From a virus, in UHGV virus genome UHGV-0202386: a stretch of 15,272 nt of DNA, one strand, 5' to 3'. A program made the position numbers and the translations under genes. Shown in pieces: positions 126 through 14,785 of this stretch. How positions within the stretch are numbered: position 1 is the first letter of the stretch; each line of letters begins with the position of its first letter. Under the pieces are notes generated by a model. The model had not been told where the DNA came from, did not search any database, and saw nothing but the letters and a program-made list of their open reading frames with translations.

Positions 126-130
126 ATTAG

Positions 131-240
131 TGTTCTTTGCTGTTTCATAATGTGCCACGTTGTTCGTTATGTTTTTGATTTTTAAACGCATTGCAATTTT
201 TCTTGTTCCAGCTTGTTCCACGTTGTACCCCCTTGTGCAA
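131..240 (+). repeat. Array of about 8 TGTTC/TTGTTC-like motifs with 10-bp periodicity between attL and int
   Basis: TGTTC/TGTTT/TGTGC/TGTTC begin at 131, 141, 151, 161; CTTGTTCCA at 202 and 212, CGTTGTACC at 221, CTTGTGCA at 232. Read directly from the sequence. Confidence 0.6.
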
Positions 241-245
241 TGATC

Positions 246-268
246 GGTGTAGTCACTGGTGTAGTCAT
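246..268 (+). repeat. Tandem decamer GGTGTAGTCA x2 (12-bp spacing), candidate integrase arm-type sites in attL
   Basis: GGTGTAGTCAC 246-256 and GGTGTAGTCAT 258-268. A near-identical tandem pair lies at 15045-15066. Together with TTGTTCCACGTTGT (214-227 / 15013-15026) these form an imperfect direct repeat of about 60 bp just inside both ends. Confidence 0.55.
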
Positions 269-303
269 TTTTTTGCAAAATTGGGGAGCGGGGGAGAATA
301 AAC

Positions 304-1533
304 GTGAGCAGAGCGCTTAACAAACTGAGCGATACATTGTTAAGAAAACTTTATGGTAAGCCAGCGGAGAAAAATACGTTCTATAGCGATGGCGGTAATC
401 TGAGCGTGAAATATTTAACATCAGGTAAATTGACCTGGTACTTCACCTACAGGGCTGGAACGGGAAGGGATACCACACCGGAACGCCTGAAGCTGGGAAA
501 CTATCCCGATCTGAGCCTTAAAGCAGCCAGGGAAAAAGCCGCAAAGTGTCGTGCATGGCTGGCAGAAGGGAAAAACCCACGTCATGAACTGAACTACACT
601 GTGCAGGAAGCGTTAAAACCCGTAACGGTTGGCGATGCGATCAGTTACTGGCTGGAAACGCACGTAAAGGAAAACCGTGTCGATTATGTATGCCTGAAAA
701 GTCGCCTGAATAATCACGTCATACAGCACATCGGTAACATGCCACTGGATAAATGCGAATTACGTCACTGGCTGGCCTGTTTTGACCGGATACGCAAAAA
801 ATCCCCCGTAACGTCTGGTCACATGATGCAGGCGTGTAAACAGGCGCTTAAGTTCTGCCGTAAACGTCGCTACGCAGTCAGTAACGTTCTGGATGATCTC
901 AACGTGGTGGACGTTGGCAAAAAGCCGGGCATAAGCGAACGCGTGCTTAGTAACAAAGAACTGGGCGAATTATTACAGGCGCTGGATAAAAAAATATTCC
1001 CGCCCTACTACAGCGCACTAATCCGCCTCCTGATTGTGTTTGGTTGCCGAACCGGAGAACTGAGGCTGTCGGAGATCAGGGAGTGGGATTTTAAGGAAAT
1101 GCTCTGGACAGTACCGAAGGAGCACAGCAAAACGAAGGTCGCCATATTCAGGCCAATACCGGAAAGCATTTTACCGTTTGTCACACGGCTGGTGGAGCAG
1201 AACCGACACACAGGGCTATTACTCGGGGAACTGAAACAGGAAGCCAGCGTGTCGCAATACGGCAGATTCACGCACAAAAAATTAAACCATCCGCACTGGT
1301 CACTACACGATATACGGCGCACGTTTACCACGATGCTGAATGATTTAGGCGTGGATCCGCATATTGTCGAACAACTCACCGCTCACCAGATGCCAGGGAT
1401 GCAGCGAGTCTATAACCACTCCCGTTATCTCGATGCGAAACGTAATGCGCTGGACATGTGGACAGAGCGGTTAGAGATACTGGCGGGTACTCACGAAAAC
1501 GTAACCACACTGCCAATAGCCAGAGAAATATAA
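304..1533 (+). CDS. int: Tyrosine recombinase / phage integrase (P4-type, with N-terminal arm-binding DUF4102-like region); GTG start
   Basis: 409-aa ORF. N-terminal pattern YSDGGNLSV..LTSGKLTWYFTYR...LKLGNYPDLSLKAAREKAAKCRAWLAEGKNP is typical of P4-family integrase arm domains. C-terminal catalytic signatures GCRTGELR, HWSLHDIRRTF, VYNHSRYLD. RBS-like GGGGGAG upstream of GTG 304. Sits next to attL. Confidence 0.9.
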   Translation: MSRALNKLSDTLLRKLYGKPAEKNTFYSDGGNLSVKYLTSGKLTWYFTYRAGTGRDTTPERLKLGNYPDLSLKAAREKAAKCRAWLAEGKNPRHELNYTVQEALKPVTVGDAISYWLETHVKENRVDYVCLKSRLNNHVIQHIGNMPLDKCELRHWLACFDRIRKKSPVTSGHMMQACKQALKFCRKRRYAVSNVLDDLNVVDVGKKPGISERVLSNKELGELLQALDKKIFPPYYSALIRLLIVFGCRTGELRLSEIREWDFKEMLWTVPKEHSKTKVAIFRPIPESILPFVTRLVEQNRHTGLLLGELKQEASVSQYGRFTHKKLNHPHWSLHDIRRTFTTMLNDLGVDPHIVEQLTAHQMPGMQRVYNHSRYLDAKRNALDMWTERLEILAGTHENVTTLPIAREI

Positions 1534-1554
1534 TTTTTTTCGTGATTTTTCAGA

Positions 1555-1620
1555 ACGGACACAACGTGGAACAACGAGACACAACGACGAACAACAAGGA
1601 ACAAAATGGGACAAGCGGAT
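1555..1620 (-). repeat. Six copies of GAACAACG-like motif exactly 10 bp apart (reverse complement of the TTGTTC motif) between int and alpA
   Basis: ACAACG at 1561, 1571, 1581; ACAACA at 1591; ACAAAA at 1601; ACAAGC at 1611. ACAACGTGGAACAA (1561-1574) is the exact reverse complement of TTGTTCCACGTTGT found at 214-227 and 15013-15026. Confidence 0.6.
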
Positions 1621-1699
1621 TAAAAATCAAACTCATTCATAACCATTTGATTTTTATATGTATACTGTTTTTTTATACACTGGCGAATCACTCTTAAAA

Positions 1700-1734
1700 A
1701 TATGTAAAAAAGGCGTAAAAGCAAAATTTTACGC
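1700..1734 (-). terminator. Candidate intrinsic terminator for leftward transcription (8-bp stem GCGTAAAA/TTTTACGC followed by a T-run on the minus strand)
   Basis: Perfect inverted repeat 1713-1720 / 1727-1734 with 6-nt loop. On the minus strand it is followed by TTTTTTACATATTTTT. The stem is AU-rich, so only moderate. Confidence 0.35.
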
Positions 1735-1871
1735 TACTACATCACAATGAATTAAAAGTATTTTTATTCTAATTACCCCATATCTGTAAAACGACCGTCA
1801 CCAATATTTGCCATTCATCACTCTAGCGGGAACAATACGACACAATAAGACACCAAATGACTCTTTGAGAA

Positions 1872-2075
1872 ATGACGGAGGCAATAGTGTTAAGCGCTGA
1901 TCGCTTTATACGTGAAAAAGAATGTCAGCAACTTACAGGCCTGAGCCGCTCATGTCGGTATCGCCTGGAGAAGACTGGACAATTCCCATCACGGCGTAAA
2001 CTCGGCGGTCGTTCCGTTGGCTGGTCTTTATCCGAAGTTCTGGCATGGAAGGACAGCCGCGAGGCAGTTCACTAA
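1872..2075 (+). CDS. alpA: AlpA-family phage transcriptional regulator / excisionase-like HTH protein
   Basis: Translation RFIREKECQQLTGLSRSCRYRLEKTGQFPSRRKLGGRSVGWSLSEVLAWK matches the AlpA/Phage_AlpA pattern (..GxSRSTIYRL...FP....LG.RSVGW..SEV..W). Alternative in-frame GTG start at 1887 is preceded by GGAGG at 1877-1881. Confidence 0.8.
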   Translation: MTEAIVLSADRFIREKECQQLTGLSRSCRYRLEKTGQFPSRRKLGGRSVGWSLSEVLAWKDSREAVH

Positions 2076-2081
2076 TCAGGC

Positions 2082-2100
2082 TGGCGGCGCACCGCCGCCA
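2082..2100 (+). other. GC-rich stem-loop (TGGCGGCG-CAC-CGCCGCCA) immediately 3' of alpA, with no U-tract
   Basis: Perfect 8-bp stem and 3-nt loop, seen directly. No T-run on either strand, so not a canonical intrinsic terminator. Confidence 0.5.
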
Positions 2101-2216
2101 CCCATCCACTAACACAGAGATCTAACCATGAATACTGGATATACGCCCGAACAGGGGCGGGGCTTCGTTCGTCCTGGTGAAACTAAAAAGCCATGTTATC
2201 GGGTATTTTCAGGCAT

Positions 2217-2287
2217 AAAAAAAGCGGCCCCGATAAGGAACCGCCTTTCTGAACAATTAACCTGCTGCGAAAAAAATGGATCAGTGC
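2217..2287 (-). ncRNA. Candidate small RNA of about 70 nt: extended -10 promoter to intrinsic terminator, in an ORF-free gap
   Basis: Minus-strand TGaTATAAT (plus 2294-2302) gives a predicted start near 2285-2287. Terminator hairpin at 2224-2248 (AAGGCGG..CCGCUU, about 11 bp with wobbles, 5-nt loop) is followed by U7 (plus A-run 2217-2223). No ORF of 60 aa or more on either strand here except the rejected long + frame. Confidence 0.3.
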
Positions 2288-2293
2288 AGGGGA

Positions 2294-2302
2294 ATTATAT
2301 CA
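2294..2302 (-). promoter_or_regulatory. Extended -10 promoter element TGaTATAAT (minus strand), no convincing -35
   Basis: Reverse complement of plus 2294-2302 reads TGATATAAT. Read directly. Confidence 0.35.
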
Positions 2303-2340
2303 ACCGTGTGGTGAAGCGCCACTATTGCCGGATAACAGGC

Positions 2341-2369
2341 AAAACAAAGGCGACCGCAAAAGGGTCGCC
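2341..2369 (-). terminator. Intrinsic terminator of the leftward RHH operon
   Basis: Perfect 7-bp stem GGCGACC/GGTCGCC (2349-2355 / 2363-2369) with 7-nt loop. On the minus strand it is followed by TTTGTTTTG (plus 2341-2348). Lies 66 nt downstream of the stop of ORF 2436-2609. Confidence 0.55.
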
Positions 2370-2435
2370 AGTGGGAACAAGGGAAAACAAAAGCATCACC
2401 AACAATGCCACATTTGCGGCTGGTGGGCAATGTGA

Positions 2436-2609
2436 TCAGTCAGATTTGGTTCGTTCCAAGGTTTGCAACGAGAGTTTTTTCCTGCGCTCTTTAAGGAATT
2501 TCTCAAGAGCAAACGAACAAGGTGCGAATCTTTCTGATTCATGCTCTATCTTTCTGCGCCGTCTTTTCCGTGTCGGTGATAATGTTTTGGTCAATTCTTT
2601 ATCGGTCAT
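2436..2609 (-). CDS. Hypothetical small basic protein (57 aa), second gene of the leftward operon
   Basis: ORF MTDKELTKTLSPTRKRRRRKIEHESERF..., AGGG 8 nt upstream of ATG 2609. An alternative ATG at 2624 has no RBS. A perfect 7-bp hairpin (2631-2637 / 2651-2657) separates it from the upstream gene. Supported mainly by the downstream terminator; no recognisable family. Confidence 0.35.
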   Translation of the reverse strand: MTDKELTKTLSPTRKRRRRKIEHESERFAPCSFALEKFLKERRKKLSLQTLERTKSD

Positions 2610-2666
2610 TGTGTTGCCCTGCATAGCAATGCGCCGTAATACCTTACACCACGGCGCTGGTGATGG

Positions 2667-2846
2667 TTACTCCTGCTCTTTGGCCTTGCGGCGCTGGCGG
2701 CGTTTGATCTCGCCTTGCATTGACGCAATGATGAATTGTGATGTGCTTTCGCCTGATTCTTTCACTGATTCCATGGCGTTTACTATTTCGTGTGGTACAC
2801 GAGCCTTTAGAGCTTGTGATTTTGCGTTTGTTGTACCCGTTGCCAT
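2667..2846 (-). CDS. Small ribbon-helix-helix (Arc/CopG-like) DNA-binding protein, candidate repressor of the divergent early promoter
   Basis: 59-aa ORF MATGTTNAKSQALKARVPHEIVNAMESVKESGESTSQFIIASMQGEIKRRQRRKAKEQE. By eye: beta strand (KARVP), helix, helix, basic tail. RBS AGAGGA upstream of ATG 2846. Faces a promoter overlapped by direct repeats. Confidence 0.65.
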   Translation of the reverse strand: MATGTTNAKSQALKARVPHEIVNAMESVKESGESTSQFIIASMQGEIKRRQRRKAKEQE

Positions 2847-2907
2847 TTCTATTCCTCTGTTGGATTGGTGGGGGACAGTATACACAGAAAAAGCACAAAT
2901 AAAACCC

Positions 2908-2948
2908 TTGACGTGGGCCACACCTAAAGCATATAGTGGGCCACACCT
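2908..2948 (+). promoter_or_regulatory. Rightward early promoter (-35 TTGACG 2908-2913, 18-bp spacer, -10 TATAGT 2932-2937) overlapped by two 13-bp direct-repeat operators GTGGGCCACACCT
   Basis: Repeat copies at 2913-2925 and 2936-2948 (perfect 13/13, 23-bp spacing), one over the -35/spacer and one over the -10/start. Sits in the divergent region between the RHH gene and the rightward ORF cluster. Confidence 0.5.
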
Positions 2949-2974
2949 TGAGATTGTCAAGGTGCATAAATGCA

Positions 2975-3009
2975 AAGCCCCGCAAGTGTCGTTACCACTC
3001 GCAGGGCTT
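2975..3009. other. Strong stem-loop in the 5' leader of the rightward operon; on the minus strand it reads as hairpin plus UUUGCAUUUAU
   Basis: AAGCCCCGCAAGTG (2975-2988) pairs with CACTCGCAGGGCTT (2996-3009) at 12 of 14 positions, 7-nt loop. No T-run on plus; T-rich tail on minus (plus 2961-2974). Confidence 0.5.
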
Positions 3010-3045
3010 CTAACCACCAACGATAGAAAGTGTATCGAGGTAGCT

Positions 3046-3252
3046 ATGAGAAATTATACCAGACACCCGCAAGGGCGGGACTCGTACAACCTGAATAAAT
3101 ACATCTGGCGTTTTATCGCCCTGAGCACGGCACAACCGCGCGTGATTACCATTGAGGCCACCAGCGAACAGGAAGCGCGTCAGCAATCTCCTGATGGCTG
3201 CGTGATGGTATTCGCTGCCCGTATTCGTCAGGGGGTACGCCATGTGCAATAA
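3046..3252 (+). CDS. Hypothetical protein (68 aa), first gene of the rightward early operon
   Basis: ATG 3046 preceded by GAGGT (3037-3041). Translation MRNYTRHPQGRDSYNLNKYIWRFIALSTAQPRVITIEATSEQEARQQSPDGCVMVFAARIRQGV. A vague resemblance to small Icd/Ash-like satellite proteins is my impression only. Confidence 0.6.
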   Translation: MRNYTRHPQGRDSYNLNKYIWRFIALSTAQPRVITIEATSEQEARQQSPDGCVMVFAARIRQGVRHVQ

Positions 3253-3481
3253 CACCCGTCCGGACGCAGCCGCCGAAGCCATCAAAACGCTGATGCACGC
3301 GCTGATTGATATTTCTGTTATCGCAGACAAGGCGCATAAGCGCGCCACCAGCGAAACAGAATATGCCGGGGCTTTCGTTCCTCACTCACTGGCTGTTATG
3401 CAACTTAGTGCGGATATGGCGCTGAATGAGGCTAAAGCCATCCTGATTGCTGATTGTGAAAATGGGGGGGGTTATGCGTGA
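3242..3481 (+). CDS. Hypothetical protein (79 aa)
   Basis: ATG 3242 overlaps the upstream stop; AGGGGG 9 nt upstream. No recognisable family. Confidence 0.55.
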   Translation: MCNNTRPDAAAEAIKTLMHALIDISVIADKAHKRATSETEYAGAFVPHSLAVMQLSADMALNEAKAILIADCENGGGYA

Positions 3482-3707
3482 TGATCGTTTTAATTCCCTG
3501 AAACAGGAATTTTCCGGCGTTCCTGATGATGCGGCTGATGCGCTTTCGTCAATGCCAGAGCTTATTAGAGCGGCTTTTTTCTTACTTTCCACGAGAGAAT
3601 ATAAATCAACGGGGCTTGATGTACTGAATATCGCCGCCGATTATGCGGAATATGTGGCAGAGGCGCGTTATAGAAGAAAATTTCCTGAGGATGTAAGCCA
3701 TGCGTGA
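3474..3707 (+). CDS. Hypothetical protein (77 aa from ATG 3474; alternative ATG 3462)
   Basis: G-rich RBS GGGGGGG upstream. Overlaps neighbours in the coupled ATGA/TGA style. Acidic protein, unknown. Confidence 0.5.
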   Translation: MRDDRFNSLKQEFSGVPDDAADALSSMPELIRAAFFLLSTREYKSTGLDVLNIAADYAEYVAEARYRRKFPEDVSHA

Positions 3708-3933
3708 TATTTACCACGAAACAATAGACCGCGCATTTCTTGCACTTTCTCACAGTGAAAACATGCTGGGAATATTGCGCATATGGCTTGAAACACTTGG
3801 CGACAATGAACGCGACAAACAAAAATCAAGAATTGCCACGGCATTAATAACGCTTCTTGAGCCTGTAATAATGGAACTGCAAGAAATAGATCTATTGCAC
3901 GACAGATATAAAGAACAGCACACCGGAGAATAA
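3700..3933 (+). CDS. Hypothetical protein (77 aa)
   Basis: ATG 3700 overlaps the upstream stop; GAGGA at 3686-3690. Unknown family. Confidence 0.5.
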   Translation: MRDIYHETIDRAFLALSHSENMLGILRIWLETLGDNERDKQKSRIATALITLLEPVIMELQEIDLLHDRYKEQHTGE

Positions 3934-3938
3934 AAATA

Positions 3939-4238
3939 ATGAAACTTAAATATTCTGGCTTAACTGCCAGTGGCAACACTCACCCTAAATTTACGCGCGG
4001 CGATATTTACCGCGACCAGTACGGCGGCACGGTAATGATTAAGGGCGTGGAAGAACGGCGCGTAACCTACCGCCGTGAAGGTTACGAATATGATTGCGTG
4101 ATGCCTGTTTATCAGTTCCGGCGTGATTTTTCTCTGGTACAGACCGCGCCGCATAACGTGTCCACCAGCAACGCCAGGGCACGGGCAAACATCCAGAAGC
4201 TGAAAACCATGATTAACGGATTCAGGGGTAAAAAATGA
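3939..4238 (+). CDS. Hypothetical protein (99 aa), possibly DUF4222-like
   Basis: Motif YRDQYGGTVMIKGVEERRVTYRREGYEYDCVMPVYQFRRDF reminds me of DUF4222 proteins of enterobacterial prophages (memory only). Stop overlaps the primase start. Confidence 0.5.
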   Translation: MKLKYSGLTASGNTHPKFTRGDIYRDQYGGTVMIKGVEERRVTYRREGYEYDCVMPVYQFRRDFSLVQTAPHNVSTSNARARANIQKLKTMINGFRGKK

Positions 4239-6049
4239 AACTGGCACCGAACGTAAAACAGCAGTCACGCGGCATAAAACACAAAGAAACAGAAGTCATT
4301 ATTTTTGCGGGTAGTGATGCCTGGTCACACGCAAAACAATGGCAGGAACATGACGCGCGTATGGCCGGAGATAATGAGCCTCCTGTGTGGCTTGGGGAGC
4401 AGCAGTTATCCGAACTGGATAAGCTGCAAATTGTGCCGGAAGGCAGAAAATCCGTGCGCATATTCAGGGCCGGATATCTTGCGCCAGTAATGATAAAGGC
4501 GATTGGTCAGAAGCTGGCGGCGGCAGGCGTACAGGATGCAAATTTTTATCCTGAGGGTATGCACGGTCAGGAGGTGCAGAACTGGCGCGAATATCTGGCC
4601 CGTGAGCGCCAGAATCTTTCTGATGGTCTGGTGATTCAGCTTCCTGTTAAGAAAAAAACAGAAGACAGCGCCGCACCACTGGCGCTTAACCAGATGGGAG
4701 CAAGCCAGCGCGGCGAAGTTCTCCTGGCACATTATGGCGGTGAACTGGCGATTCATGCCGACTCTGACACTGTTCACCATTACAACGGCGTTGTATGGGA
4801 GCCGATTCAGGATAAAGAGTTACAGCGTGCTATGGCGCAGATTTTCATTGATGCGGAGATCAGCTATTCGCAGAACGCCATTAAATCGGCGGTCGATACC
4901 ATGAAGTTAAGTTTGCCTGTAATGGGGAATACAGCCCGTAACCTGATTGGATTCAGTAACGGGGTATTTGATACCAGAACAGGTAATTTTCGGGAGCATA
5001 ACAAAAACGACTGGTTGTTAATTGCCAGTGAATTACCTTTCAGCCCACCAGCAGAGGGGGAAACGCTGGCAACACATGCGCCGAATTTCTGGAAGTGGTT
5101 ACGCTGCTCGGTGGCAGAGAATGACCGCAAGACGGATCGCGTGCTGGCTGCATTATTCATGGTGCTGGCGAACCGGTACGACTGGCAGTTATTCATTGAG
5201 GTAACAGGTCCAGGGGGAAGTGGTAAAAGCGTGATGGCGGAGATTTGCACTATGCTGGCGGGTAAGGCCAACACAGTATCGGCAAGCATGAAGGCGCTGG
5301 AAGATGCAAGGGAACGCGCGTTAGTGGTTGGCTTTTCGCTGATTATCATGCCGGATATGACCCGCTACGCTGGTGATGGCGCAGGAATTAAGGCCATTAC
5401 AGGCGGTGACAAGGTGGCAATCGACCCGAAGCATAAAGCCCCCTACTCAACACGCATTCAGGCGGTCGTGCTGGCGGTGAACAATAACGCCATGTCATTC
5501 AGTGACCGCAGCGGGGGGATCTCACGTCGTCGGGTGATATTCAATTTTTCGGAGGTTGTACCGGAGAACGAGCGCGACCCCATGCTGGCAGAAAAAATAG
5601 AAGGAGAGCTGGCGGTTGTGATTCGCCATCTGCTTACTCGTTTTTCTGACCAGGACGAAGCTAAACGCCTGCTGTATGAGCAGCAGAAATCAGAAGAAGC
5701 TCTGGTGATAAAACGCGAGGGCGATTCGCTGGTGGACTTCTGTGGCTATCTCATGTCGTCGGTAATGTGTGATGGTCTGTTAGTGGGTAATGCCGAAATT
5801 ATTCCGTTCAGTCCGCGCAGGTATCTTTATCACGCCTATCTGGCATATATGAGGGCACACGGATTCGGTAAACCTGTAACACTGACGCGCTTCGGTAAAG
5901 ATATGCCGGGGGCAATGGCGGAATATGGCAGGGAGTATATAAAACGGAAAACGAAGCACGGTTTGCGTTCAAATGTGACACTGACAGAGGATTCAGAAGA
6001 CTGGATGCCATCATGTGCATCGGTCACAAATGACGACAGCAAAAATTAA
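4235..6049 (+). CDS. Replication initiator: P4-alpha-like primase / SF3 helicase (Walker A GPGGSGKS)
   Basis: 604-aa ORF. Walker A in VTGPGGSGKSVMAE, Walker B-like LIIMPDM, sensor AVVLAVNNN. Followed directly by TGTTCACC iterons, as for P4 alpha and its ori. Confidence 0.8.
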   Translation: MKLAPNVKQQSRGIKHKETEVIIFAGSDAWSHAKQWQEHDARMAGDNEPPVWLGEQQLSELDKLQIVPEGRKSVRIFRAGYLAPVMIKAIGQKLAAAGVQDANFYPEGMHGQEVQNWREYLARERQNLSDGLVIQLPVKKKTEDSAAPLALNQMGASQRGEVLLAHYGGELAIHADSDTVHHYNGVVWEPIQDKELQRAMAQIFIDAEISYSQNAIKSAVDTMKLSLPVMGNTARNLIGFSNGVFDTRTGNFREHNKNDWLLIASELPFSPPAEGETLATHAPNFWKWLRCSVAENDRKTDRVLAALFMVLANRYDWQLFIEVTGPGGSGKSVMAEICTMLAGKANTVSASMKALEDARERALVVGFSLIIMPDMTRYAGDGAGIKAITGGDKVAIDPKHKAPYSTRIQAVVLAVNNNAMSFSDRSGGISRRRVIFNFSEVVPENERDPMLAEKIEGELAVVIRHLLTRFSDQDEAKRLLYEQQKSEEALVIKREGDSLVDFCGYLMSSVMCDGLLVGNAEIIPFSPRRYLYHAYLAYMRAHGFGKPVTLTRFGKDMPGAMAEYGREYIKRKTKHGLRSNVTLTEDSEDWMPSCASVTNDDSKN

Positions 6050-6062
6050 ACTTATGGAATAA

Positions 6063-6293
6063 CTGTTCACCACTGTTCACCCTGTTATAAATATCTTTTA
6101 TATCAGTACATTATAGGGTGAACAGTTATTTGTGAACTGTTCACCAAACTATTCACTGTTCACCTTTTTGATTATTTATTGAGCTTTAAGGGTGAACAGT
6201 GGTGAACAGTTGGTGAATAGTTTTTGTGAAACTGTTCACCCCTTAACGTTATGAATAAAAAGGGAAAATCTCAAAAGGTGAACAGGTGAAGGG
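6063..6293. repeat. Origin of replication: about 11 copies of the 9-mer CTGTTCACC (P4 type-I iteron TGTTCACC) in both orientations
   Basis: Plus-orientation copies at 6063, 6073, 6137, 6156, 6232; reverse-orientation GGTGAACAG at 6117, 6191, 6201, 6277, with variants at 6212 and 6285. AT-rich spacers. Lies immediately downstream of the primase. Confidence 0.8.
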
Positions 6294-6336
6294 TTAAAAT
6301 GCAAAAATTTTATTTTATTGCTGTGAGGTAAAGCCT

Positions 6337-6582
6337 GTGACAACGCAGCACGCAAAAAAACCACAATCTCACGCCCTTGATTTGACAGAACACTGGCTGA
6401 GGGTGGCGATAAAAATCATCGACCGCAACGCGGGAGAAGGGTACGCAAAAGCACATCCCGAACTGGTAAGCGCATTCATGACCACGGCAGCGGCAAACTT
6501 TGCCACACTGACAGAACGGGAGATTGCCGAAGCGGAACAGGTGACAACCATCAACGTTAAAACCGGAGAGCAGACAGCATGA
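6337..6582 (+). CDS. Hypothetical protein (81 aa), GTG start
   Basis: GAGG at 6325-6328, 8 nt before GTG 6337. Stop overlaps the ssb start (ATGA). Unknown family. Confidence 0.5.
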   Translation: MTTQHAKKPQSHALDLTEHWLRVAIKIIDRNAGEGYAKAHPELVSAFMTTAAANFATLTEREIAEAEQVTTINVKTGEQTA

Positions 6583-7004
6583 CAGCACAGATAGCGGCTT
6601 ACGGGCGGCTGGTGGCTGACCCGCAGTTAAAGACCACCAGCAAAGGGACACAAATGGCGATGGCGAGTATGGCGGTTCCCCTGCCGTGCAGCCAGGCAGA
6701 TGACGGAACGGCGACGATGTGGTTATCTGTCCTGGCGTTTGGCAGACAGGCCGACGCACTGGCAAAACACCACAAAGGCGAACTGGTGAGCGTGGCGGGT
6801 AACATGCAGGTGAGCCAGTGGACAGGCCAGAACGGGGAAACGCGGCAGGGCTGGCAGGTTATTGCAGACAGCGTAATCAGTGCGCGAACGGCGCGACCGG
6901 GCGGCAAAAAAGGTCAACAGGGCCAGGCCACTGACGCACTGAACAGGGCAAAACAACAGACAAGCCAGCACGATGACCCGTACGGGGATAACATACCGTT
7001 TTAA
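6579..7004 (+). CDS. ssb: Single-stranded DNA-binding protein (short SSB with conserved C-terminal ..D-N-IPF tip)
   Basis: OB-fold pattern (W..V.AFG..A..L.K...KG..V.V.G......W....G..R) and C-terminus DDPYGDNIPF resembling the SSB acidic tip DDDIPF. GGAGAG RBS. Confidence 0.8.
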   Translation: MTAQIAAYGRLVADPQLKTTSKGTQMAMASMAVPLPCSQADDGTATMWLSVLAFGRQADALAKHHKGELVSVAGNMQVSQWTGQNGETRQGWQVIADSVISARTARPGGKKGQQGQATDALNRAKQQTSQHDDPYGDNIPF

Positions 7005-7040
7005 TTCACAACAGCGAACAGAGTAATTACAGGGGAAGGC

Positions 7041-7571
7041 ATGACAACGCTGACCATTAACCGGAAGCCGAAAGGCATTTACGGCACGCCGCAGAAAACG
7101 ACGCAGGCGGCGCAAGAGCAGGATAAAACCACATCGGTGCATAAAGTGATACCCGGCAATCAGAACGCACAGCAGAAGCCCACAGGGGCGACACCGTGGC
7201 AGCATATGACCAAAAGGCAGCGCAAAAACCGCCGACGCGTTAACCGCCTCACTGAGATGTGGCCTGACTTATTCAGCCATAAAGCACCGAAGCCGCTTAA
7301 GGTGGGGATATTCGACGACCTGATGCAGGATATCGCCGTCAGGGGGCTGGCATTCGGGTCGGGGGTATTACGTGCGACGCTGGCATCCTATGCGCAGTCT
7401 CCGCGCTATTACCGCGCCCTGATAGCTGGTGGCGCACGTTACGACCTGAAGGGCCAGCCATGTGGGGAAGTGACACCACAGGAACAGCAGGAGGCAGAAA
7501 CACGGCTGATGGTGCTGAATGAGAAGCACAAGCGCCAGCGCCGGGCAGCAAAGGGGGATACATGCCAGTGA
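7041..7571 (+). CDS. ProQ/FinO-domain RNA-binding protein (FinO-like RNA chaperone)
   Basis: PKPLKVGIFDDLMQDIAVRG...LRATLASYAQSPRYYRALIAGGARYDLKGQPCGEVTPQEQQEA aligns by eye to the ProQ/FinO core (PLKIGIFQDL...[35 protein letters not shown]). Lys/Gln-rich N-terminal extension. RBS AGGGGAAGG. Confidence 0.8.
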   Translation: MTTLTINRKPKGIYGTPQKTTQAAQEQDKTTSVHKVIPGNQNAQQKPTGATPWQHMTKRQRKNRRRVNRLTEMWPDLFSHKAPKPLKVGIFDDLMQDIAVRGLAFGSGVLRATLASYAQSPRYYRALIAGGARYDLKGQPCGEVTPQEQQEAETRLMVLNEKHKRQRRAAKGDTCQ

Positions 7572-7810
7572 CATTTGAAGAAGTTCAGCAACATAAAAAG
7601 CTTCATGGTTTTGATGATCTGGAAACCACGACAGCAAAAAAATATCGTCGGTTGCTTTCTTCCGATGCGTTATTTTTTGTGGATCATCATGATTTTCTGC
7701 GTAGCTCACTGACCGGGGAAATTTTCGCAACCAACCGTGAGCAGGTGGAAGCGATGATCGAATATTTGTGGAAAATAAGACGCAGAATGCGGGAGCCAGT
7801 GAAACAATAA
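7562..7810 (+). CDS. Hypothetical protein (82 aa), last gene of the early/replication operon
   Basis: ATG 7562 overlaps the upstream stop; AGGGGGA RBS. Followed by a strong terminator. Confidence 0.5.
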   Translation: MPVTFEEVQQHKKLHGFDDLETTTAKKYRRLLSSDALFFVDHHDFLRSSLTGEIFATNREQVEAMIEYLWKIRRRMREPVKQ

Positions 7811-7820
7811 AGCGATAAAG

Positions 7821-7847
7821 GCCCGGATTTTTTCCGGGTCTTTTTTC
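7821..7847 (+). terminator. Rho-independent terminator ending the early/replication operon
   Basis: GCCCGGA-TTTTT-TCCGGGTC hairpin (7821-7840) followed by TTTTTT (7841-7847). Confidence 0.8.
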
Positions 7848-7864
7848 AGGTTTTGTAAATTATT

Positions 7865-7890
7865 TGTTCGTGGTTGTTCCAGGTTGTTCG
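7865..7890 (+). repeat. Three TTGTTC motifs exactly 10 bp apart, upstream of the capsid operon
   Basis: TTGTTC at 7865, 7875, 7885 (TTGTTCGTGG / TTGTTCCAGG / TTGTTCGGTG). Same motif family as the arrays at 131-240, 1555-1620 and 15001-15030. Confidence 0.6.
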
Positions 7891-7980
7891 GTGATTCTGG
7901 TTGATGTTTACATACTGATTTTTATGTATATGTTGGCGTGTGGCACTCAGACGTGAGCCGCCACAATGCCGCCTGATCCC

Positions 7981-8013
7981 CTGCGCGATGCCGGGTTGAT
8001 CTGCGAGATGCCG
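7981..8013 (+). promoter_or_regulatory. Pair of 13-bp direct repeats CTGCG(C/A)GATGCCG 20 bp apart, candidate activator sites of the late (capsid) promoter
   Basis: Copies at 7981-7993 and 8001-8013, 12 of 13 identical, 70-100 bp upstream of the capsid start. No good sigma-70 -35/-10 nearby, which fits an activator-dependent promoter. Confidence 0.35.
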
Positions 8014-8083
8014 AGAGTGTCGGGCGGCGCTCCCCCCGTGTTGGTTTCACGTCCTGAATCTTAACCAATGCGAGAAAACCTTC

Positions 8084-9229
8084 ATGAAGAAATTAATCGA
8101 ACTCCGCCAGCAAAAAACCGCCCTGAAAAACCAGATGCGATCCCTGCTGGAAAAAGCCGACAGTGAAAACCGCAGTCTAACCGATGACGAAGGCAAACAG
8201 TTTGATGAACTGCGTGCAAAAGCCGATTCCCTCGACACAGAAATTTCCCGCCTCGAGTCTGTGGCTGATGAAGAACGTAACCAGCCTGGTGTTCCCGTCG
8301 AAGATAAAATCACCAAAAATGAGCTACGCTCTTACATTCTGACCGGGGAAACCCGCAACCTGTCCGGCAGTGTTCCGGCTGATGGTGGTTATACGGTTAT
8401 CCCGGAACTGAACAGAGAAATTATGCGTCAGCTTTCTGATGAGTCGGTGATGCGTAAAATCTGTACTGTTAAAACCATTCACAGTAATGAATTTAAGCAA
8501 CTGGTTTCTGCCGGGGGTGCGGTCGTGGGACACGGCGAAGAAGGTGCGGCACGTAACCAGACGGCAACCCCAAAACTGAATGAAGTCAGTATCCGCCTGT
8601 ATCCGATCTACGCTTACCCGAAAACCACTCAGGAAATTATCGATTTTTCCGAAGTCGATATTATGGGCTGGTTATCTTCTGAAATTGGCGACACTTTCGT
8701 TGATACCGAAGAAACGGATCTGGTTTCCGGTGATGGCGAGAAAAAAGCCAAAGGTTTCCTGACTTTCCCGCGCGCTACGGATAATGACAAAACCCGTCCT
8801 TTCGGTACGCTCCAGACGAAAAAAGTGACTGGCAGTCTCAGCGCCGATATGCTGATTGACCTGAAATTTACGCTGCGCAATAAGTACCGCAAAAAAGCTG
8901 TATGGGTGATGAACTCAAATACAGCCGCCTCCGCACAAAAACTGAAAAATGCCACTGGTGATTACATCTGGCGCGATCGTTTACAGGCTGGTGATCCTGA
9001 TTCTCTGCTGGGGCTTCCGGTTGAATATCTGGAATTTATGCCGGACGGTGTGATTGCAGTCGGTGACTTTAAGCGCGGTTATTTCATCGTTGACCATAAA
9101 ACCGGTACGCGTACCCGTCCGGATTTCAGCGAGCCTGGATTCATTAACATCTATACCCAGAAATATCTGGGCGGTGGTGTGGTGGATTCGAACGCCATCA
9201 AGATTCTGGAAATTCAGGCTGGCAAGTAA
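8084..9229 (+). CDS. HK97-family major capsid protein with N-terminal coiled-coil delta/scaffold domain
   Basis: 381 aa. N-terminal about 70 aa is charged coiled-coil (ELRQQKTALKNQMRSLLEKADSENRSL..). C-terminal motifs LLGLPVEYLEFMP..GDFKRGYFIVDHKTG...YLGGGVVDSNAIKILE are typical of Phage_capsid (HK97 fold). Confidence 0.85.
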   Translation: MKKLIELRQQKTALKNQMRSLLEKADSENRSLTDDEGKQFDELRAKADSLDTEISRLESVADEERNQPGVPVEDKITKNELRSYILTGETRNLSGSVPADGGYTVIPELNREIMRQLSDESVMRKICTVKTIHSNEFKQLVSAGGAVVGHGEEGAARNQTATPKLNEVSIRLYPIYAYPKTTQEIIDFSEVDIMGWLSSEIGDTFVDTEETDLVSGDGEKKAKGFLTFPRATDNDKTRPFGTLQTKKVTGSLSADMLIDLKFTLRNKYRKKAVWVMNSNTAASAQKLKNATGDYIWRDRLQAGDPDSLLGLPVEYLEFMPDGVIAVGDFKRGYFIVDHKTGTRTRPDFSEPGFINIYTQKYLGGGVVDSNAIKILEIQAGK

Positions 9230-9278
9230 TGAGCAAAGGGGGCTTCGGCCTCCTTTTTCAGCTTTATGGAGTACACCG

Positions 9279-9839
9279 ATGAAAAACACCGATTTTGAAA
9301 TCCGTACATCTGAACTGACCGCCAGCGATAAAAAACTGGTGGGTTATGCCGTTCGCTGGAACAGCCTTTCAGAAATTATCTGGGACGAGTTTCGCGAACA
9401 GTTCACGCCGGGGGCTTTTGCTGACTATCTGGCGGCGGGTAATGATGTGCGCTGTCTGTATGAGCATGACTATACCCAACTGCTGGGGCGTACCAAATCC
9501 GGCTCACTGGTACTGACTGAGGATAACACCGGGCTACGTTTTGAACTGACACCGCCAAATACCCAGCTTGGAAAAGATGTGCTTACGCTGGTGGAACGTG
9601 GCGATATTACAGGAATGAGCTTTGGCTTTCGCGCATTATGCGAGGAGTGGAATATCGCGCAAAAACCGTATCTGCGTACTGTAACCGCCGCAGAACTCCG
9701 TGAAATCACGATAACATCGATGCCTGCTTATCCCGAATCCGGCGTGGAGATTGCCCACCGTTCGTTGTTTGCACAGTACCCTGAATTACGCCCGGCAGGA
9801 AATAATCGTCATCGCTGGGCTGAACTGGCGGGGTTGTGA
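9279..9839 (+). CDS. HK97-family prohead (maturation) protease
   Basis: MKNTDFEIR...LVGYAVRWN...FTPGAFADYL...VRCLYEHD..QLLGRTKSGSLVLTEDNTGLRFE...GKDVLTLVERGDITGMSFGF matches the Peptidase_S78/U35 prohead-protease pattern. GGAG RBS at 9268-9271. Confidence 0.85.
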   Translation: MKNTDFEIRTSELTASDKKLVGYAVRWNSLSEIIWDEFREQFTPGAFADYLAAGNDVRCLYEHDYTQLLGRTKSGSLVLTEDNTGLRFELTPPNTQLGKDVLTLVERGDITGMSFGFRALCEEWNIAQKPYLRTVTAAELREITITSMPAYPESGVEIAHRSLFAQYPELRPAGNNRHRWAELAGL

Positions 9840-9840
9840 T

Positions 9841-11055
9841 ATGTGGTGGCCTTTTAGTCGTAAAAAAAGCGATCTGCGTAACCTGTCCATTGATGATTTT
9901 CTGGCGTTGTCTGGTGTACCAAATACCGGATCCGGAGAATATGTTTCTGCCGGGACGGCTGAATCATTGCCTGCTGTGATGAACGCGGTTTCTGTCATCG
10001 CTGAGGCGGTGGCCACGATGCCGTGTTACCTGTATCTGGTACGCAATGATAAGGGCAGAGAGGCGCGGGAATGGCTGGACAGTCACCCGGTAGATATTCT
10101 GCTGAATGAGCAGCCTAATTCGTGCCTGACACCTTACCAGTTTAAACGCACAATGATGCGTCACTGCCTGCTGAACGGTAACGCCTATGCGGTTATTGAG
10201 TGGGGGCGGGACGGGCAGCCAAAATCACTTCATCCTTATGCGCCGGGGTGTGTTGTACCGGAACGCACAGGCACACACAAATACCGCTATACCATCACCG
10301 AACCCTGTACAGGAACGGTGCGCACGTATTTACAGGAAGAAGTTCTGCATCTCCGCTATGCCTCGGATGATGGCTTTCTGGGGCGTTCCCCCGTCACGAT
10401 TTGCCGTGAGGCGCTGGGGCTTGGCCTTGCTCAACAGCGCCACGGAGCCAGCATTATGAAAGATGGCATGATGGCGGCAGGGATTATCACGTCAGGTGAA
10501 TGGCTGGACGGCGTGAAAGGTAAACAGGCATTAGACGCACTGGAACGCTACAAGGGGGCGAAAAATGCCGGAAAAACGCCAATCCTTGAAGGGGGCATGG
10601 ATTACAGGCAGCTGGGGATGAGTAACCAGGATGCGGAATGGCTGGCCTCCCGTCGCTTCTCCATTGAAGACATCGCCAGGATGTTCAACGTGTCGCCGAT
10701 TTTTCTTCAGGAATACAGCAACAGCACCTACAGCAATTTCAGTGAGGCGAGCCGCGCATTTCTGACCATGACAATGCGCCCGTGGCTGGCGAACTTCGAA
10801 CAGCAAATCAAGGCCGCTTTGCTGGTGACTTCTCCCGTACCTGGTACCCGTTATCTGGTTGAGTTTGATTCAGCCGATTTACTGCGCGCCACACCCACCG
10901 AACGTTATGCCACGTATGAGAAAGGGATTAAGAGCGGGATCATGAATCCGAACGAAGCTCGCGAACGCGAGGGTATGCCGCCGCGTGAAGGTGGTGATGA
11001 GTTCAGCCAGGCATGGAAACAGACTGTGGAAATTAAAGGGAGAAAAGATGAGTGA
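9841..11055 (+). CDS. HK97-family portal protein
   Basis: 404 aa from ATG 9841, 1 nt after the protease stop. Long conserved portal-like core (NAYAVIEWGRDGQP..., SIMKDGMMAAGIITSGEWLDG..., FLTMTMRPWLANFEQQIKAALL). Position and size fit a portal. Confidence 0.8.
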   Translation: MWWPFSRKKSDLRNLSIDDFLALSGVPNTGSGEYVSAGTAESLPAVMNAVSVIAEAVATMPCYLYLVRNDKGREAREWLDSHPVDILLNEQPNSCLTPYQFKRTMMRHCLLNGNAYAVIEWGRDGQPKSLHPYAPGCVVPERTGTHKYRYTITEPCTGTVRTYLQEEVLHLRYASDDGFLGRSPVTICREALGLGLAQQRHGASIMKDGMMAAGIITSGEWLDGVKGKQALDALERYKGAKNAGKTPILEGGMDYRQLGMSNQDAEWLASRRFSIEDIARMFNVSPIFLQEYSNSTYSNFSEASRAFLTMTMRPWLANFEQQIKAALLVTSPVPGTRYLVEFDSADLLRATPTERYATYEKGIKSGIMNPNEAREREGMPPREGGDEFSQAWKQTVEIKGRKDE

Positions 11056-11350
11056 AGCCAGAATTACACCTGATGAAGTCAGGGCACATCTTCGACTTGA
11101 TGATGATTTATCCGGTGAAGGCGAACTTCTGAAAATGTATACCGATGCGGCGCTGGAAGCCTGCCAGAAGCATATCGGGAAACGTTTTGAAGACGGGCTG
11201 GAATTTACCCCGGCAATGCGTGTTGGTTGCCTGATGTACATCGCTTTCCTGTACGAGAACCGGGAAGCGGTTTCACCAGTGGAGCAGTCTGAACTGCCTA
11301 TGGCTATTTCTGCGCTCTGGTCAGTTTATCGTGATGTAGGGGTGTACTGA
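11048..11350 (+). CDS. gp6-like head-tail connector (head completion/adaptor) protein
   Basis: 100 aa. MSEARITPDEVRAHLRLDDDLSGEGELLKMYTDAALEACQKHIGKRF matches the Phage_connect_1 N-terminal pattern (..HLRID.D.D...I......AA). Start overlaps the portal stop. Confidence 0.7.
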   Translation: MSEARITPDEVRAHLRLDDDLSGEGELLKMYTDAALEACQKHIGKRFEDGLEFTPAMRVGCLMYIAFLYENREAVSPVEQSELPMAISALWSVYRDVGVY

Positions 11351-11790
11351 TGCCGTGGCAACCATTAAGGCGATGCACTGAGCCGGGCTGTAATAAGCGC
11401 GTGAAGTCCGGCAAGTGTGAAGAGCACAGGCGGGCTGTATGGCGTGCAGAGGATGCCAGACGGGGACACCGCCGCGCGCGCGGGTATTCCCGACAGTGGG
11501 ACAAATACCGCGCCCTGTACCTGAGCAAAAACCCGTTATGCGTGCGTTGTCTGGCTAAGGGGATTTATACGCCAGCTCTTGTGGTGGATCACATCATCCC
11601 CATCAATGGCGGCGGTGATGTTCTCTTCTGGCCTGAGTGGAACCACCAGGCATTGTGCCAGACGTGCCACAACCGTAAGACGACACGGGAAGATCCAGCC
11701 ACGAAAGCGAACCGTAAGGCGGGCATGTATCGCGAGCAGGAAGAACGGGCAGCACACCGTAACGACTGGATGTATGGCGATGATGACTGA
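11350..11790 (+). CDS. Phage HNH endonuclease (terminase-associated)
   Basis: Cys-rich zinc finger (CTEPGCNKRVKSGKCEEH ... CVRC ... CQTCHNRKT) with VVDHIIPINGGGD..WNHQALC HNH core. Located immediately upstream of terS/terL, as in HK97-like cos phages. ATG overlaps the upstream stop (TGATG). Confidence 0.8.
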   Translation: MPWQPLRRCTEPGCNKRVKSGKCEEHRRAVWRAEDARRGHRRARGYSRQWDKYRALYLSKNPLCVRCLAKGIYTPALVVDHIIPINGGGDVLFWPEWNHQALCQTCHNRKTTREDPATKANRKAGMYREQEERAAHRNDWMYGDDD

Positions 11791-11959
11791 ACAGGAGCAA
11801 ACCAGGCTGATACGTGGACTGATAAGGCAGCGTGACTTATGGAAGACACAGGAGACAGGGCACAAAGCCAACAGGACAGGGCGCACAAAACGCACCACAG
11901 CGAAGCGATTAACCGACCGTGACCGCGAGGCCATGGAATGTTTTCGCAATCGCTGGTGA
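11780..11959 (+). CDS. Doubtful small basic ORF (about 59 aa) overlapping the HNH stop; may instead be non-coding cos DNA
   Basis: ATG-ATG at 11780/11783, no clear RBS. Arg/Lys/Thr-rich low-complexity translation. Confidence 0.2.
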   Translation: MMTEQEQTRLIRGLIRQRDLWKTQETGHKANRTGRTKRTTAKRLTDRDREAMECFRNRW

Positions 11960-12078
11960 GGCCGTCAGAGGGGGTGGGGGTGGTTTTCAGGACGAAACCG
12001 TCCCTGCCGGACACCGACCGCCTCCTCAAATTTTTGTGCACGGGAATTTTTTTGAAAATAATTGGGCGAAAAAAGAAC
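11791..12078 (+). other. Candidate cos/packaging-recognition region between HNH and terS, containing a G-rich tract
   Basis: 288-bp gap without a convincing gene. GGGGGTGGGGGTGG at 11970-11983 followed by a CAGGACG-AAAC-CGTCCCTG hairpin. Location argument: in HK97-like phages cos lies between the HNH gene and terS. Confidence 0.3.
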
Positions 12079-12435
12079 ATGGCAAGACCACCAAAAGCCC
12101 CCGCTTACCTGGATGAAATCGCGGTCAGGCAGTGGAAGGAAAAATCGCGCCAGCTTTCCGGACGGGAAGACCTTACCCCCGCCGACTGGAGCAATCTGGA
12201 GCTGTATTGTGTTAACTACTCCATATACCGCAAAGCCGTCGAAGACCTTGCCACGCGCGGGTTCAGCATTGTTAACAGTCAGGGCAGCGAGAGCAGAAAC
12301 CCCGCCCTGAGCGCAAAGGCTGACGCTGAAAGAATAATGATCAAAATGGCTTCTTTGCTGGGTTTTGACCCGGTAAGTCGCCGCAGAAATCCACCGGAAA
12401 CAGAGGAAGAGGACGAGCTTGACCGCCTGGCATGA
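12079..12435 (+). CDS. terS: Terminase small subunit, P27 family
   Basis: MARPPKAPAYLDEIAVRQWKEK...LELYCVNYSIYRKAVEDL...GSESRNPALSAKADAERIMIKMASLLGFDPVSRRR matches the P27-family TerS pattern. The ORF-track N-terminal extension (from 11938) has no support. Confidence 0.75.
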   Translation: MARPPKAPAYLDEIAVRQWKEKSRQLSGREDLTPADWSNLELYCVNYSIYRKAVEDLATRGFSIVNSQGSESRNPALSAKADAERIMIKMASLLGFDPVSRRRNPPETEEEDELDRLA

Positions 12436-14080
12436 GTACGCAGAAGGCGTAAAAAACGGCAAAATTACGGCCTGTAAACGACTGAAACAGGCCGTTAAAC
12501 GGTATTTTTCTGACCTTGAAAACCCCCTTTACACGTTCGATCCGGAGGTCGTGGAGCGGTTTATTGCCTTTTCCAGGGTGTGTCCGCACGTAAAAGGCGC
12601 AATGCGCGGTAGCCCCATTGAGCTGGAGCCGTGGCAGCAGTTCGCCTTTGCGTGCATCCTGGGCTTTAAGGTTAAGGCCACCGGACGGCGCAAATACACC
12701 AGCGCATTCATTGAAGTGCCGCGAAAAAATGCCAAATCCACGGTCGCCGCTATCCTGGCTAACTGGTTTCTGGTTATGGAAAACGGGCAGCAGGATATTT
12801 ACACCGCCGCTGTGAGTCGTGATCAGGCGCGGATCGTGTTTGATGATGCGCGTCAGATGTGCCTTTTATCCCGACCGTTACGAAAGCGGGTAAATATTCA
12901 GGCACACAAGGTGATACACCCGAAAACCAACAGCCTGTTAAAGCCACTGGCAGCAAAAGCGGCAACCATTGAAGGTACAAACCCGAGTCTTGCCATTGTG
13001 GATGAATATCACCTGCACCCTGACAACGGGGTTTATTCCGCGCTTGAACTGGGAATGGGGGCGCGTCCGGAGGGGCTGTTATTTGCCATCACCACATCGG
13101 GGAGCAACGTTGTTTCAGCCTGTAAACAACACTATGACTATTGCTGCCAGATACTGGATGGTGAAGAGGTGAACGAATCCATGTTCGTGCTGATTTACGA
13201 GCTGGATGATGAAAGCGAGGTTGACGATCCGGCGATGTGGATAAAGGCGAATCCCAATATCGATGTTTCCGTCGATCGTGAAAAACTGGCCTCAACCATC
13301 CAGAAAGCGCGGGGTATTCCGTCGCAGTGGGTGGAAATGCTCACCAAGCGATTCAATATCTGGTGTCAGGGGGCTACGCCGTGGATGGGTAACGGTGCAT
13401 GGGCGGAGTGCGCCGGAACGTTCGCGGAGGCGGATTTATACGGTCAGGAGTGCTACGCGGGGCTGGACTTATCATCAACCAGCGATATTTCCAGCGTGTG
13501 CTATGCCTTTCCGGTCGGTAAAAAGATTATGCTGGTTTCCCGTCACTATCTGCCGGAATTTCAGCTACAGAACCCCGCCAATAAAAACCGCGCCATCTAT
13601 CGCCAGTGGGTAAAGGCGGGCTGGATACGCACAACACCGGGTGACTGCATTGATTATGACCGTATCCGTGATGACATCATGGCGGATGCAGAGAATTTCA
13701 ATATCAGGCTGGTGGGCTTCGATACATGGAACGCCACGCACCTGAGGACGCAGCTACAGGGGGCAGGATTTGAGGTGGAGCCGTTCCCGCAAACATACCT
13801 TCGTTTCAGTCCGGCGGCGAAATCGTTCGAAGTTTTTGTTAACCGGAAGGTGATTGTGCATCGTGGCGATCCGGTGCTGGCCTGGTCAATGAGTAATGTT
13901 GTGATGCAGAGTGACGCGAACGCCAATATCAAGCCGAACAAGAAAAAATCATCCAACAAGATAGACCCGAGCGTTGCGGCTCTGATGGCGTTTGGCACAT
14001 TCCAGGCAGAACATGAGGAATTTGCATTTGATATAAGCGACAGCCACAAAGAGCGGCTTGCGGCGTTTGATGGGGTATGA
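12419..14080 (+). CDS. terL: Terminase large subunit (Terminase_1-like ATPase/nuclease); apparent TTG start overlapping terS by 17 nt
   Basis: 553 aa. Size, position after terS and a conserved-looking N-terminal region (PWQQFAFACILGFKV..., DIYTAAVSRDQARIVFDDAR). No in-frame ATG until codon 62; GAGGA at 12408-12412 precedes TTG 12419. Confidence 0.85.
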   Translation: MTAWHEYAEGVKNGKITACKRLKQAVKRYFSDLENPLYTFDPEVVERFIAFSRVCPHVKGAMRGSPIELEPWQQFAFACILGFKVKATGRRKYTSAFIEVPRKNAKSTVAAILANWFLVMENGQQDIYTAAVSRDQARIVFDDARQMCLLSRPLRKRVNIQAHKVIHPKTNSLLKPLAAKAATIEGTNPSLAIVDEYHLHPDNGVYSALELGMGARPEGLLFAITTSGSNVVSACKQHYDYCCQILDGEEVNESMFVLIYELDDESEVDDPAMWIKANPNIDVSVDREKLASTIQKARGIPSQWVEMLTKRFNIWCQGATPWMGNGAWAECAGTFAEADLYGQECYAGLDLSSTSDISSVCYAFPVGKKIMLVSRHYLPEFQLQNPANKNRAIYRQWVKAGWIRTTPGDCIDYDRIRDDIMADAENFNIRLVGFDTWNATHLRTQLQGAGFEVEPFPQTYLRFSPAAKSFEVFVNRKVIVHRGDPVLAWSMSNVVMQSDANANIKPNKKKSSNKIDPSVAALMAFGTFQAEHEEFAFDISDSHKERLAAFDGV

Positions 14081-14370: not shown

Positions 14371-14376
14371 CTTGTG

Positions 14377-14426: not shown

Positions 14427-14445
14427 GACGGTATTTAAATAGAGT

Positions 14446-14472: not shown

Positions 14473-14483
14473 CGTGTGGTGCA

Positions 14484-14777: not shown

Positions 14778-14785
14778 ACTGTTTT

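Follow-up and report, generated by a model that had tools for sequence, protein, structure and literature searches.

[quoted passage not shown] The protein is probably an accessory replication factor that adds to the host SSB and would bind the partner proteins which that SSB uses. The window analysed here is the whole 15,272-nt stretch of UHGV-0202386, in whose ORF listing the gene appears as a forward reading frame of 141 aa plus stop (Table 1).

The product matches the Pfam profile PF00436 over residues 5–99 (E 4e-16, 59.4 bits vs a cut-off of 26), the PHROG family phrog_44, single strand DNA binding protein (1.5e-39), and NCBIfam TIGR00621 (62.7 bits, cut-off 53.95). Searching the PDB by sequence gave 33 distinct matches at E ≤ 1, nearly all of them SSBs. 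Over 15 pairwise comparisons the dN/dS of the OB domain is 0.03–0.24; the gene evolves under purifying selection, and both this and the family assignment are far beyond chance. The profile of the enterobacterial housekeeping SSB, NF006533 (PRK09010), is not reached (25.4 bits vs a cut-off of 260; 26% identity), and the satellite SSB thus represents a distinct paralogous lineage and no recent copy of host ssb. RefSeq entry WP_000126639.1 ("single-stranded DNA-binding protein", 141 aa) is identical to the window protein. Since that entry is correctly named and the element family was described in 2022–2023, we class the gene as already known.

The carrier has the cf-PICI hallmarks: a left arm of integrase, AlpA, primase and iteron origin, capsid genes of its own and a size of about 15 kb. 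All seven capsid and packaging genes of the cf-PICI kind are present by Pfam; related elements also have a head-closure gene, which the same profiles do not find in the window element. E. coli JP538 has a near-identical element, inserted between abgR and smrA, that encodes an identical SSB; neither the RefSeq annotation of this element nor the window ORFs include tail or lysis genes. The gene set matches that by which cf-PICIs were defined, among which EcCIEDL933 is induced by a helper phage and transferred in its own capsids with helper tails (10.1101/2022.09.08.507074).

Table 1 Features of the SSB gene and of the satellite that carries it (positions in the 15,272-nt window).
Feature	Position	Strand or direction	Basis
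SSB coding sequence	6579..7004	+	PF00436, TIGR00621, identity to WP_000126639.1
OB-fold ssDNA-binding domain (predicted), residues 1–103	6579..6887	+	AlphaFold, Foldseek, alignment, dN/dS
Linker, residues 104–130, probably disordered	6888..6968	+	Low pLDDT; indels among family members
SSB-Ct-type tip HDDPYGDNIPF, residues 131–141	6969..7001	+	Family tip motif
cf-PICI, approximate extent	118..15079	.	Elements at other chromosomal sites align over 118–15079
int, tyrosine integrase	304–1533	rightward	Pfam
alpA, AlpA regulator	1872–2075	rightward	Pfam
DUF4222 protein	3939–4238	rightward	Pfam
D5-type/P4-family primase-helicase, replication initiator	4235..6049	+	PF08706, PF19263, PF03288; phrog_864 5e-193
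Iteron-rich, AT-rich intergenic region, probable replication origin	6050..6336	.	Iterons; PICI layout
81-aa ORF, phrog_1231	6337..6582	+	Stop overlaps SSB start (ATGA)
ProQ/FinO-domain protein, directly 3′ of SSB gene	7041..7571	+	PF04352 E 4.8e-24
82-aa ORF	Between ProQ/FinO gene and capsid gene	rightward	
Major capsid, HK97-type	8084–9229	rightward	Pfam
Prohead protease	within 9054–9839	rightward	Pfam
Portal	9751–11055	rightward	Pfam
Head–tail connector	10985–11350	rightward	Pfam
HNH	11350–11790	rightward	Pfam
TerS	11938–12435	rightward	Pfam
TerL	12419–14080	rightward	Pfam

The intergenic region between the primase-helicase gene and the 81-aa ORF contains eleven copies of an iteron, GTGAAYAG/CTRTTCAC (core GGTGAACAGT), in both orientations, flanking AT-rich DNA; the remainder of the 15.3-kb window has one further match to the loose pattern. 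PICI origins sit immediately downstream of pri-rep (PMC6092414), and layout and position in the window agree with this. By analogy, the region is probably the satellite replication origin. The SSB start codon (ATG, 6579–6581) shares the tetranucleotide ATGA with the stop codon of the preceding ORF (TGA, 6580–6582), GGAG lies 10 nt 5′ of the start and the two genes are probably translationally coupled. Scanning 5900–8200 for promoters and terminators gave counts equal to the shuffle background, so transcription-unit boundaries are not callable in this segment, and an Rfam scan of the whole window returned no family at its gathering score.

We modelled the satellite SSB with AlphaFold2, using a 41-sequence family alignment as input. 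Residues 1–100 are predicted with block-mean pLDDT of 81–91 and adopt an OB topology, with strands at 2–11, 16–19, 25–36 and 44–54, a helix at 55–62 and two further strands at 69–82 and 88–101. Residues 104–121 and 127–141 fall below a pLDDT of 50, and linker and tail are probably disordered, judging from the model; indels and cassette swaps in the linker occur among family members. Foldseek places only bacterial SSBs among its 50 best PDB matches, headed by S. aureus SsbA (7ym1_B, E 1.8e-9, TM 0.79 on target). The nearest solved structures to the predicted OB domain are S. aureus SsbA and SsbB and B. subtilis SsbA (7ym1, 5xgt, 5yyu and 6bhw; E about 1e-9, TM 0.7–0.8, 26–29% identity). These are Firmicutes housekeeping or competence proteins, and their resemblance to the satellite SSB is one of fold only.

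Residue-level comparison used E. coli SSB (P0AGE0; PDB 1eqq and 1eyg), in a sequence that agrees with PDB 1eqq chain A at all 178 residues. Over the OB domain the two proteins share 26% identity in a pairwise alignment. E. coli Trp54, Phe60 and Trp88 have their aligned counterparts in satellite Trp48, Phe54 and Trp81; in the family alignment both tryptophans are invariant and Phe54 is at least 90% conserved. Three of the four aromatics that stack on ssDNA in E. coli SSB (Trp40, Trp54, Phe60 and Trp88) are therefore kept. The Trp40 position is Gln39 and the His55 position Leu49 in the satellite protein; because neither residue is conserved, binding mode and oligomer stability could differ. In the tetramer-stability mutant ssb-1 it is His55 that is changed. 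The common ground between the two proteins is the OB fold, the three aromatics and the disordered linker, and at the tip an aromatic at −7, Asp at −5 and an Ile-Pro-Phe end. E. coli SSB differs in its length, in a much longer linker and in having Trp40 and His55, whereas the satellite tip has Gly and Asn in place of two of the three E. coli tip aspartates. The lower length of the satellite protein (141 vs 178 aa) is accounted for by a linker of ~27 residues and by a gap of five residues in the loop that precedes Trp48. Every SSB property that sequence or model can address was found, namely scores above profile cut-offs, the OB fold, stacking aromatics and an SSB-Ct tail. An earlier note on this DNA had read 6579–7004 as a short, satellite-encoded SSB of 141 aa and had named the lack of an OB fold in structure prediction as one ground against it. 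The ORF, its PF00436, phrog_44 and TIGR00621 matches, its size relative to E. coli SSB, the cf-PICI gene content and order around it, and the AlphaFold model with its 50 SSB matches all bear the reading out.

With a threshold of E ≤ 1e-5, a protein search with the satellite SSB recovered 759 relatives, and among the best 120 nearly all are E. coli proteins that already bear the name SSB. At the DNA level the lineage is present in 1,806 of 5,426 complete E. coli genomes, at up to six places per genome, and includes the prototype islands of CFT073 and O157:H7. Practically all E. coli places are chromosomal (2,347 of 2,349). A plasmid collection yielded 47 matching records, 41 typed non-mobilizable and 2 conjugative; the two records that we inspected contain PICI-type modules (int, AlpA or antirepressor, primase), in one case flanked by chromosomal genes. 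We rejected a conjugative-plasmid leading-region SSB on the strength of the chromosomal places and these modules. A phage origin was likewise rejected: in a tblastn search of 50,697 phage records the best match is 30% identical, and none of the matches lies in an enterobacterial phage. A single relative from outside the enterobacteria was retrieved, in a Fulvimarina MAG (44% identity); its surroundings resemble the early region of a prophage, contain integrase, KilA-N and RNase H genes and lack recognisable PICI genes.

Comparing 27 related loci (E. coli, E. albertii, Klebsiella, Leclercia, Buttiauxella, Pantoea and Rahnella) reveals a conserved setting. All but one (26/27) have a primase-helicase gene 0.2–2.7 kb upstream of the SSB gene, drawn from three families (D5/DUF5906, DUF927 and a zinc-binding primase-helicase). 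This order is common to cf-PICIs and classic PICIs, that is, to elements with and without a capsid module. Of the 26 loci with an upstream primase, 22 have a ProQ/FinO gene, a PerC gene or both 3′ of the SSB gene. Gene calls are available for 15 related loci; in 13 of these an upstream ORF likewise overlaps the SSB gene by 4 nt (ATGA). Phage SSB genes often adjoin recombinase genes, and such coupling would suit an annealing mediator pair made of the SSB and the small upstream protein, acting for example on concatemers before packaging. The upstream ORFs, however, have no detectable similarity to one another and no Pfam recombinase match, and their family varies between elements (phrog_1231, phrog_9576 or none). 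We consider a recombination module of this kind very improbable, and set aside the notion that the upstream ORF encodes a conserved partner of the SSB, given that the ORFs of different elements are unrelated and lack a Pfam match.

The C terminus of the satellite SSB reads ...QHDDPYGDNIPF, ending in HDDPYGDNIPF. The earlier note had described a retained protein-interaction tip (..DNIPF), and an SSB-Ct-type sequence on a disordered tail is indeed what the protein has. To place it in its family we took a census of the final twelve positions across 98 full-length cluster representatives from the lineage. Three positions are filled alike in all 98: Phe at −1, Asp at −5 and, at −7, one of the aromatics Phe, Trp and Tyr (Phe in E. 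coli MDFDDDIPF). Pro at −2 (95/98), Ile at −3 (93/98), Gly at −6 (80/98), Pro at −8 (88/98), Asp at −9 (87/98) and Asp at −10 (88/98) complete a family motif D-D-P-[YFW]-G-D-x-I-P-F. Position −4 is the most variable among the last ten, with Asn in 45 representatives, Asp in 21, Gly in 19, Glu in 11 and Ser in 2. By this census the "variant" Asn is the commonest state at the least constrained tip position.

Published work traces the binding of SSB tips to the side chain and carboxylate of the terminal Phe, seated in a hydrophobic pocket that has a basic residue, to the penultimate Pro (ssb113) and to the Asp residues, which contact a basic ridge electrostatically (PMC3159472). These published determinants (Phe, Pro and acidic residues) are all kept in the satellite tip, with one negative charge fewer (net charge over the last ten residues −3, vs −4 in E. 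coli SSB). On sequence grounds the tip would be expected to dock in the same mode as that of the host SSB, perhaps with somewhat weaker affinity. Conservation of its Phe, Pro, Ile and Asp residues, read with the work on tip binding (PMC3159472), suggests that chi, PriA, ExoI and RecQ may be among its partners.

The earlier note had gone further, proposing that a variant tip could change which partners are recruited. Taken further, a lineage-specific tip and short linker would favour other partners, such as the satellite primase-helicase or helper-phage proteins that dock on SSB tails; satellite DNA would then attract a different machinery, or helper functions would be depleted by titration. 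Both the altered preference and this outcome strike us as unlikely. Tips of the lineage are more variable than the canonical DDDIPF, both at −4 in E. coli and in other genera, where they drift to DDQIPF, DDEAPF, DDLPPF and DDSIPL, and the SSB has no close phage relative. Helper proteins that read SSB tips do exist, as shown by lambda Red-beta, which needs the terminal Phe of E. coli SSB to bind its tip (PMC6393309). Yet the variation falls where constraint is least and spares the known contact residues (PMC3159472), and relaxed constraint on a non-essential paralogue would explain it equally well. Nor do tip variants follow the primase family across the 27 loci, a sample too small to be decisive: DDEAPF is found alongside a Zn-primase as well as a DUF927 primase, DDIPF alongside D5 as well as DUF927. 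As formulated, a meaningful change of partner specificity through the tip is unsupported, Asn being commonest at the variable position and the contacts being kept; rewired partners are weakly suggested. It would be a long shot, but one of some consequence, if the PICI/cf-PICI SSB were a satellite-specific adaptor, with linker and tip tuned to the satellite's own primase-helicase or to Red-beta- or Orf-like helper proteins. Satellite DNA would then replicate preferentially, or recombination and replication of the helper would be sabotaged.

A segment of EcCICFT073 comprising only pri-rep and ori replicates a plasmid in DH5alpha without the island SSB (PMC6092414). The SSB is accordingly dispensable for initiation and basic replication, and helpful at most. 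This dispensability for plasmid replication from a PICI origin (PMC6092414), together with the common linker indels, is what a decaying, non-functional relic might show. The ORF, however, is intact in thousands of genomes, its dN/dS values are low, and the ssDNA-contact residues and tip core are invariant or nearly so, and we regard a passenger gene as extremely improbable.

That the SSB is dispensable for basic replication yet widely retained under purifying selection could also point away from the fork altogether. Roles in protection and counter-defence have been ascribed to SSBs from plasmid leading regions and to some from phages. The satellite protein might similarly shield replication intermediates from host nucleases, mask ssDNA or SSB signals to which anti-phage systems respond, or damp the SOS response. 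PADLOC defence models gave no match for the SSB or nine neighbouring proteins, nothing in the sequence links it to defence, and its constant association with primase and origin fits replication better; we judge a protective role quite unlikely.

We favour, as the probable explanation, an accessory replication protein. Family, fold, aromatics, tip core, selection, primase synteny and the adjacent iteron origin all speak for it; the identity to host SSB, only 26%, counts against it. A helper phage would induce the island and switch on a rightward operon that runs through primase-helicase, origin, small ORF and SSB. The primase-helicase would open the iteron origin and drive forks, and the SSB would coat the ssDNA exposed. 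Its IPF tip may then dock in the pockets used by host SSB on Pol III chi, PriA, RecQ, ExoI and others; through such docking, we propose, the satellite protein would supplement the host SSB pool. The pool would be topped up while satellite and helper genomes are amplified together, making the SSB helpful but non-essential. Within this scheme we infer that the SSB binds ssDNA and host partners, how it oligomerizes, when it is expressed and that it benefits fitness.

The gene itself is already catalogued under the correct name, and extra SSBs on mobile elements are commonplace. What the analysis adds is that, in enterobacterial PICIs and cf-PICIs, this lineage is a near-constant and hitherto undiscussed member of the replication arm; roughly one in three complete E. 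coli genomes carries it. As it has no close relative in sequenced phages, it could serve as a marker of enterobacterial PICIs that separates satellites from prophages. In the papers searched on PICIs and cf-PICIs we found neither mention of a PICI SSB nor an experiment on one.

The closest known systems belong to the same lineage: the SSB of the CFT073 island (WP_000126698.1), between roxA and phoQ, and that of the O157:H7 cf-PICI (WP_000126692.1) at the same site. Both genes share about 79–81% nucleotide identity with the window gene over the OB domain and are placed alike, after primase, origin and a small ORF. Their tips, GDDIPF and GDGIPF, follow the same D-x-I-P-F pattern, and RefSeq names both proteins SSB; the genes are annotated but apparently unstudied. 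They differ in length and linker (136 aa with the cassette GTQGNQPPAGG, where the window SSB has KKGQQGQATDALNRAKQQT) and in the gene 3′ of the SSB, which encodes PerC in these islands and ProQ/FinO in the window element. The O157:H7 element also uses a DUF927 primase, as against the D5-type enzyme of the window.

Among better-known SSBs of mobile DNA, F-plasmid Ssb and phage P1 Ssb are likewise extra copies with an SSB-Ct-type tip that can work with host replication proteins, and they are able to replace E. coli SSB. Lambdoid phages are not known to carry an SSB of their own. The F and P1 proteins are close relatives of host SSB, encoded in plasmid leading regions or phage genomes; the satellite SSB, in contrast, is distant from host SSB and is borne on chromosomal islands.

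Two cassettes make up the linker of the SSB. They are interchangeable, have the sequences KKGQQGQATDALNRAKQQT and GTQGNQPPAGG, and fall within columns 104–138 of the family alignment, A1. The former is found in the 141-aa forms, the latter in the 136-aa forms and both together in the 149-aa forms; KKGQQGQATDALNRAKQQT carries a weak helix prediction (residues 116–127) at low pLDDT. In islands of Klebsiella, Leclercia, Buttiauxella, Pantoea and Rahnella (loci L003 and L016–L025), the SSB tips depart from IPF, with the endings DDSIPL, DDQIPF, DDLPPF, DDEAPF, ADHESF and PPFDDDF. This variation is greater than would be expected for housekeeping SSBs, and some of the ends may be artefacts of ORF extension.

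In most related elements, the SSB gene and the ORF upstream of it share 4 nt at the stop–start junction. These upstream ORFs encode proteins of 81–257 aa from mutually unrelated families, none with a Pfam match. The slot 3′ of the SSB gene is occupied in related islands by ProQ, PerC or both (loci L009–L013, L015, L017, L018, L023 and L024). In the window, the next gene encodes a ProQ/FinO-domain protein, an RNA-chaperone-type protein carried by the satellite, with a Lys/Gln-rich N-terminal extension of ~60 aa. Immediately 3′ of the primase-helicase gene lie eleven iterons (core GGTGAACAGT) in both orientations surrounding AT-rich DNA, a region that is almost certainly the satellite replication origin.

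A 374-aa ORF of odd composition, extending into an Icd-like gene and overlapping an antisense YlcI/YnfO-family gene, is probably not a real gene. RefSeq annotates a pseudogene within the corresponding stretch of the near-identical JP538 element, and that element is 237 bp shorter than the window between int and the SSB gene. Imperfect direct repeats, candidates for attachment sites or integrase arm sites, lie close to both element ends; among them are tandem GGTGTAGTYA motifs and the sequence ACTGGTGTAGTCATTTT, repeated exactly over 17 nt.

Coordinates of features in the window and in related loci
Feature	Position	Strand
Imperfect direct repeats	141–271; 15012–15082	
17-nt exact repeat	255–271; 15054–15070	
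374-aa ORF	2128–3252	+
YlcI/YnfO-family gene	2667–3020	-
Iteron region	6050–6336	
Upstream overlapping ORFs	6337–6582; L003 7212–7592; L010 7231–8004	
SSB linker	6888–6968	
ProQ/FinO-domain protein gene	7041–7571	
IS21-family element	L005 10662–12631	

One related cf-PICI carries an IS21-family element (IstA/IstB) between its prohead-protease and portal genes. The head-closure gene (PF05521) is absent from the window element (9751–11350, versus 11960–12298 in L004 and 13315–13653 in L027), whereas in related cf-PICIs, the O157:H7 one included, it sits between the portal and head–tail connector genes.
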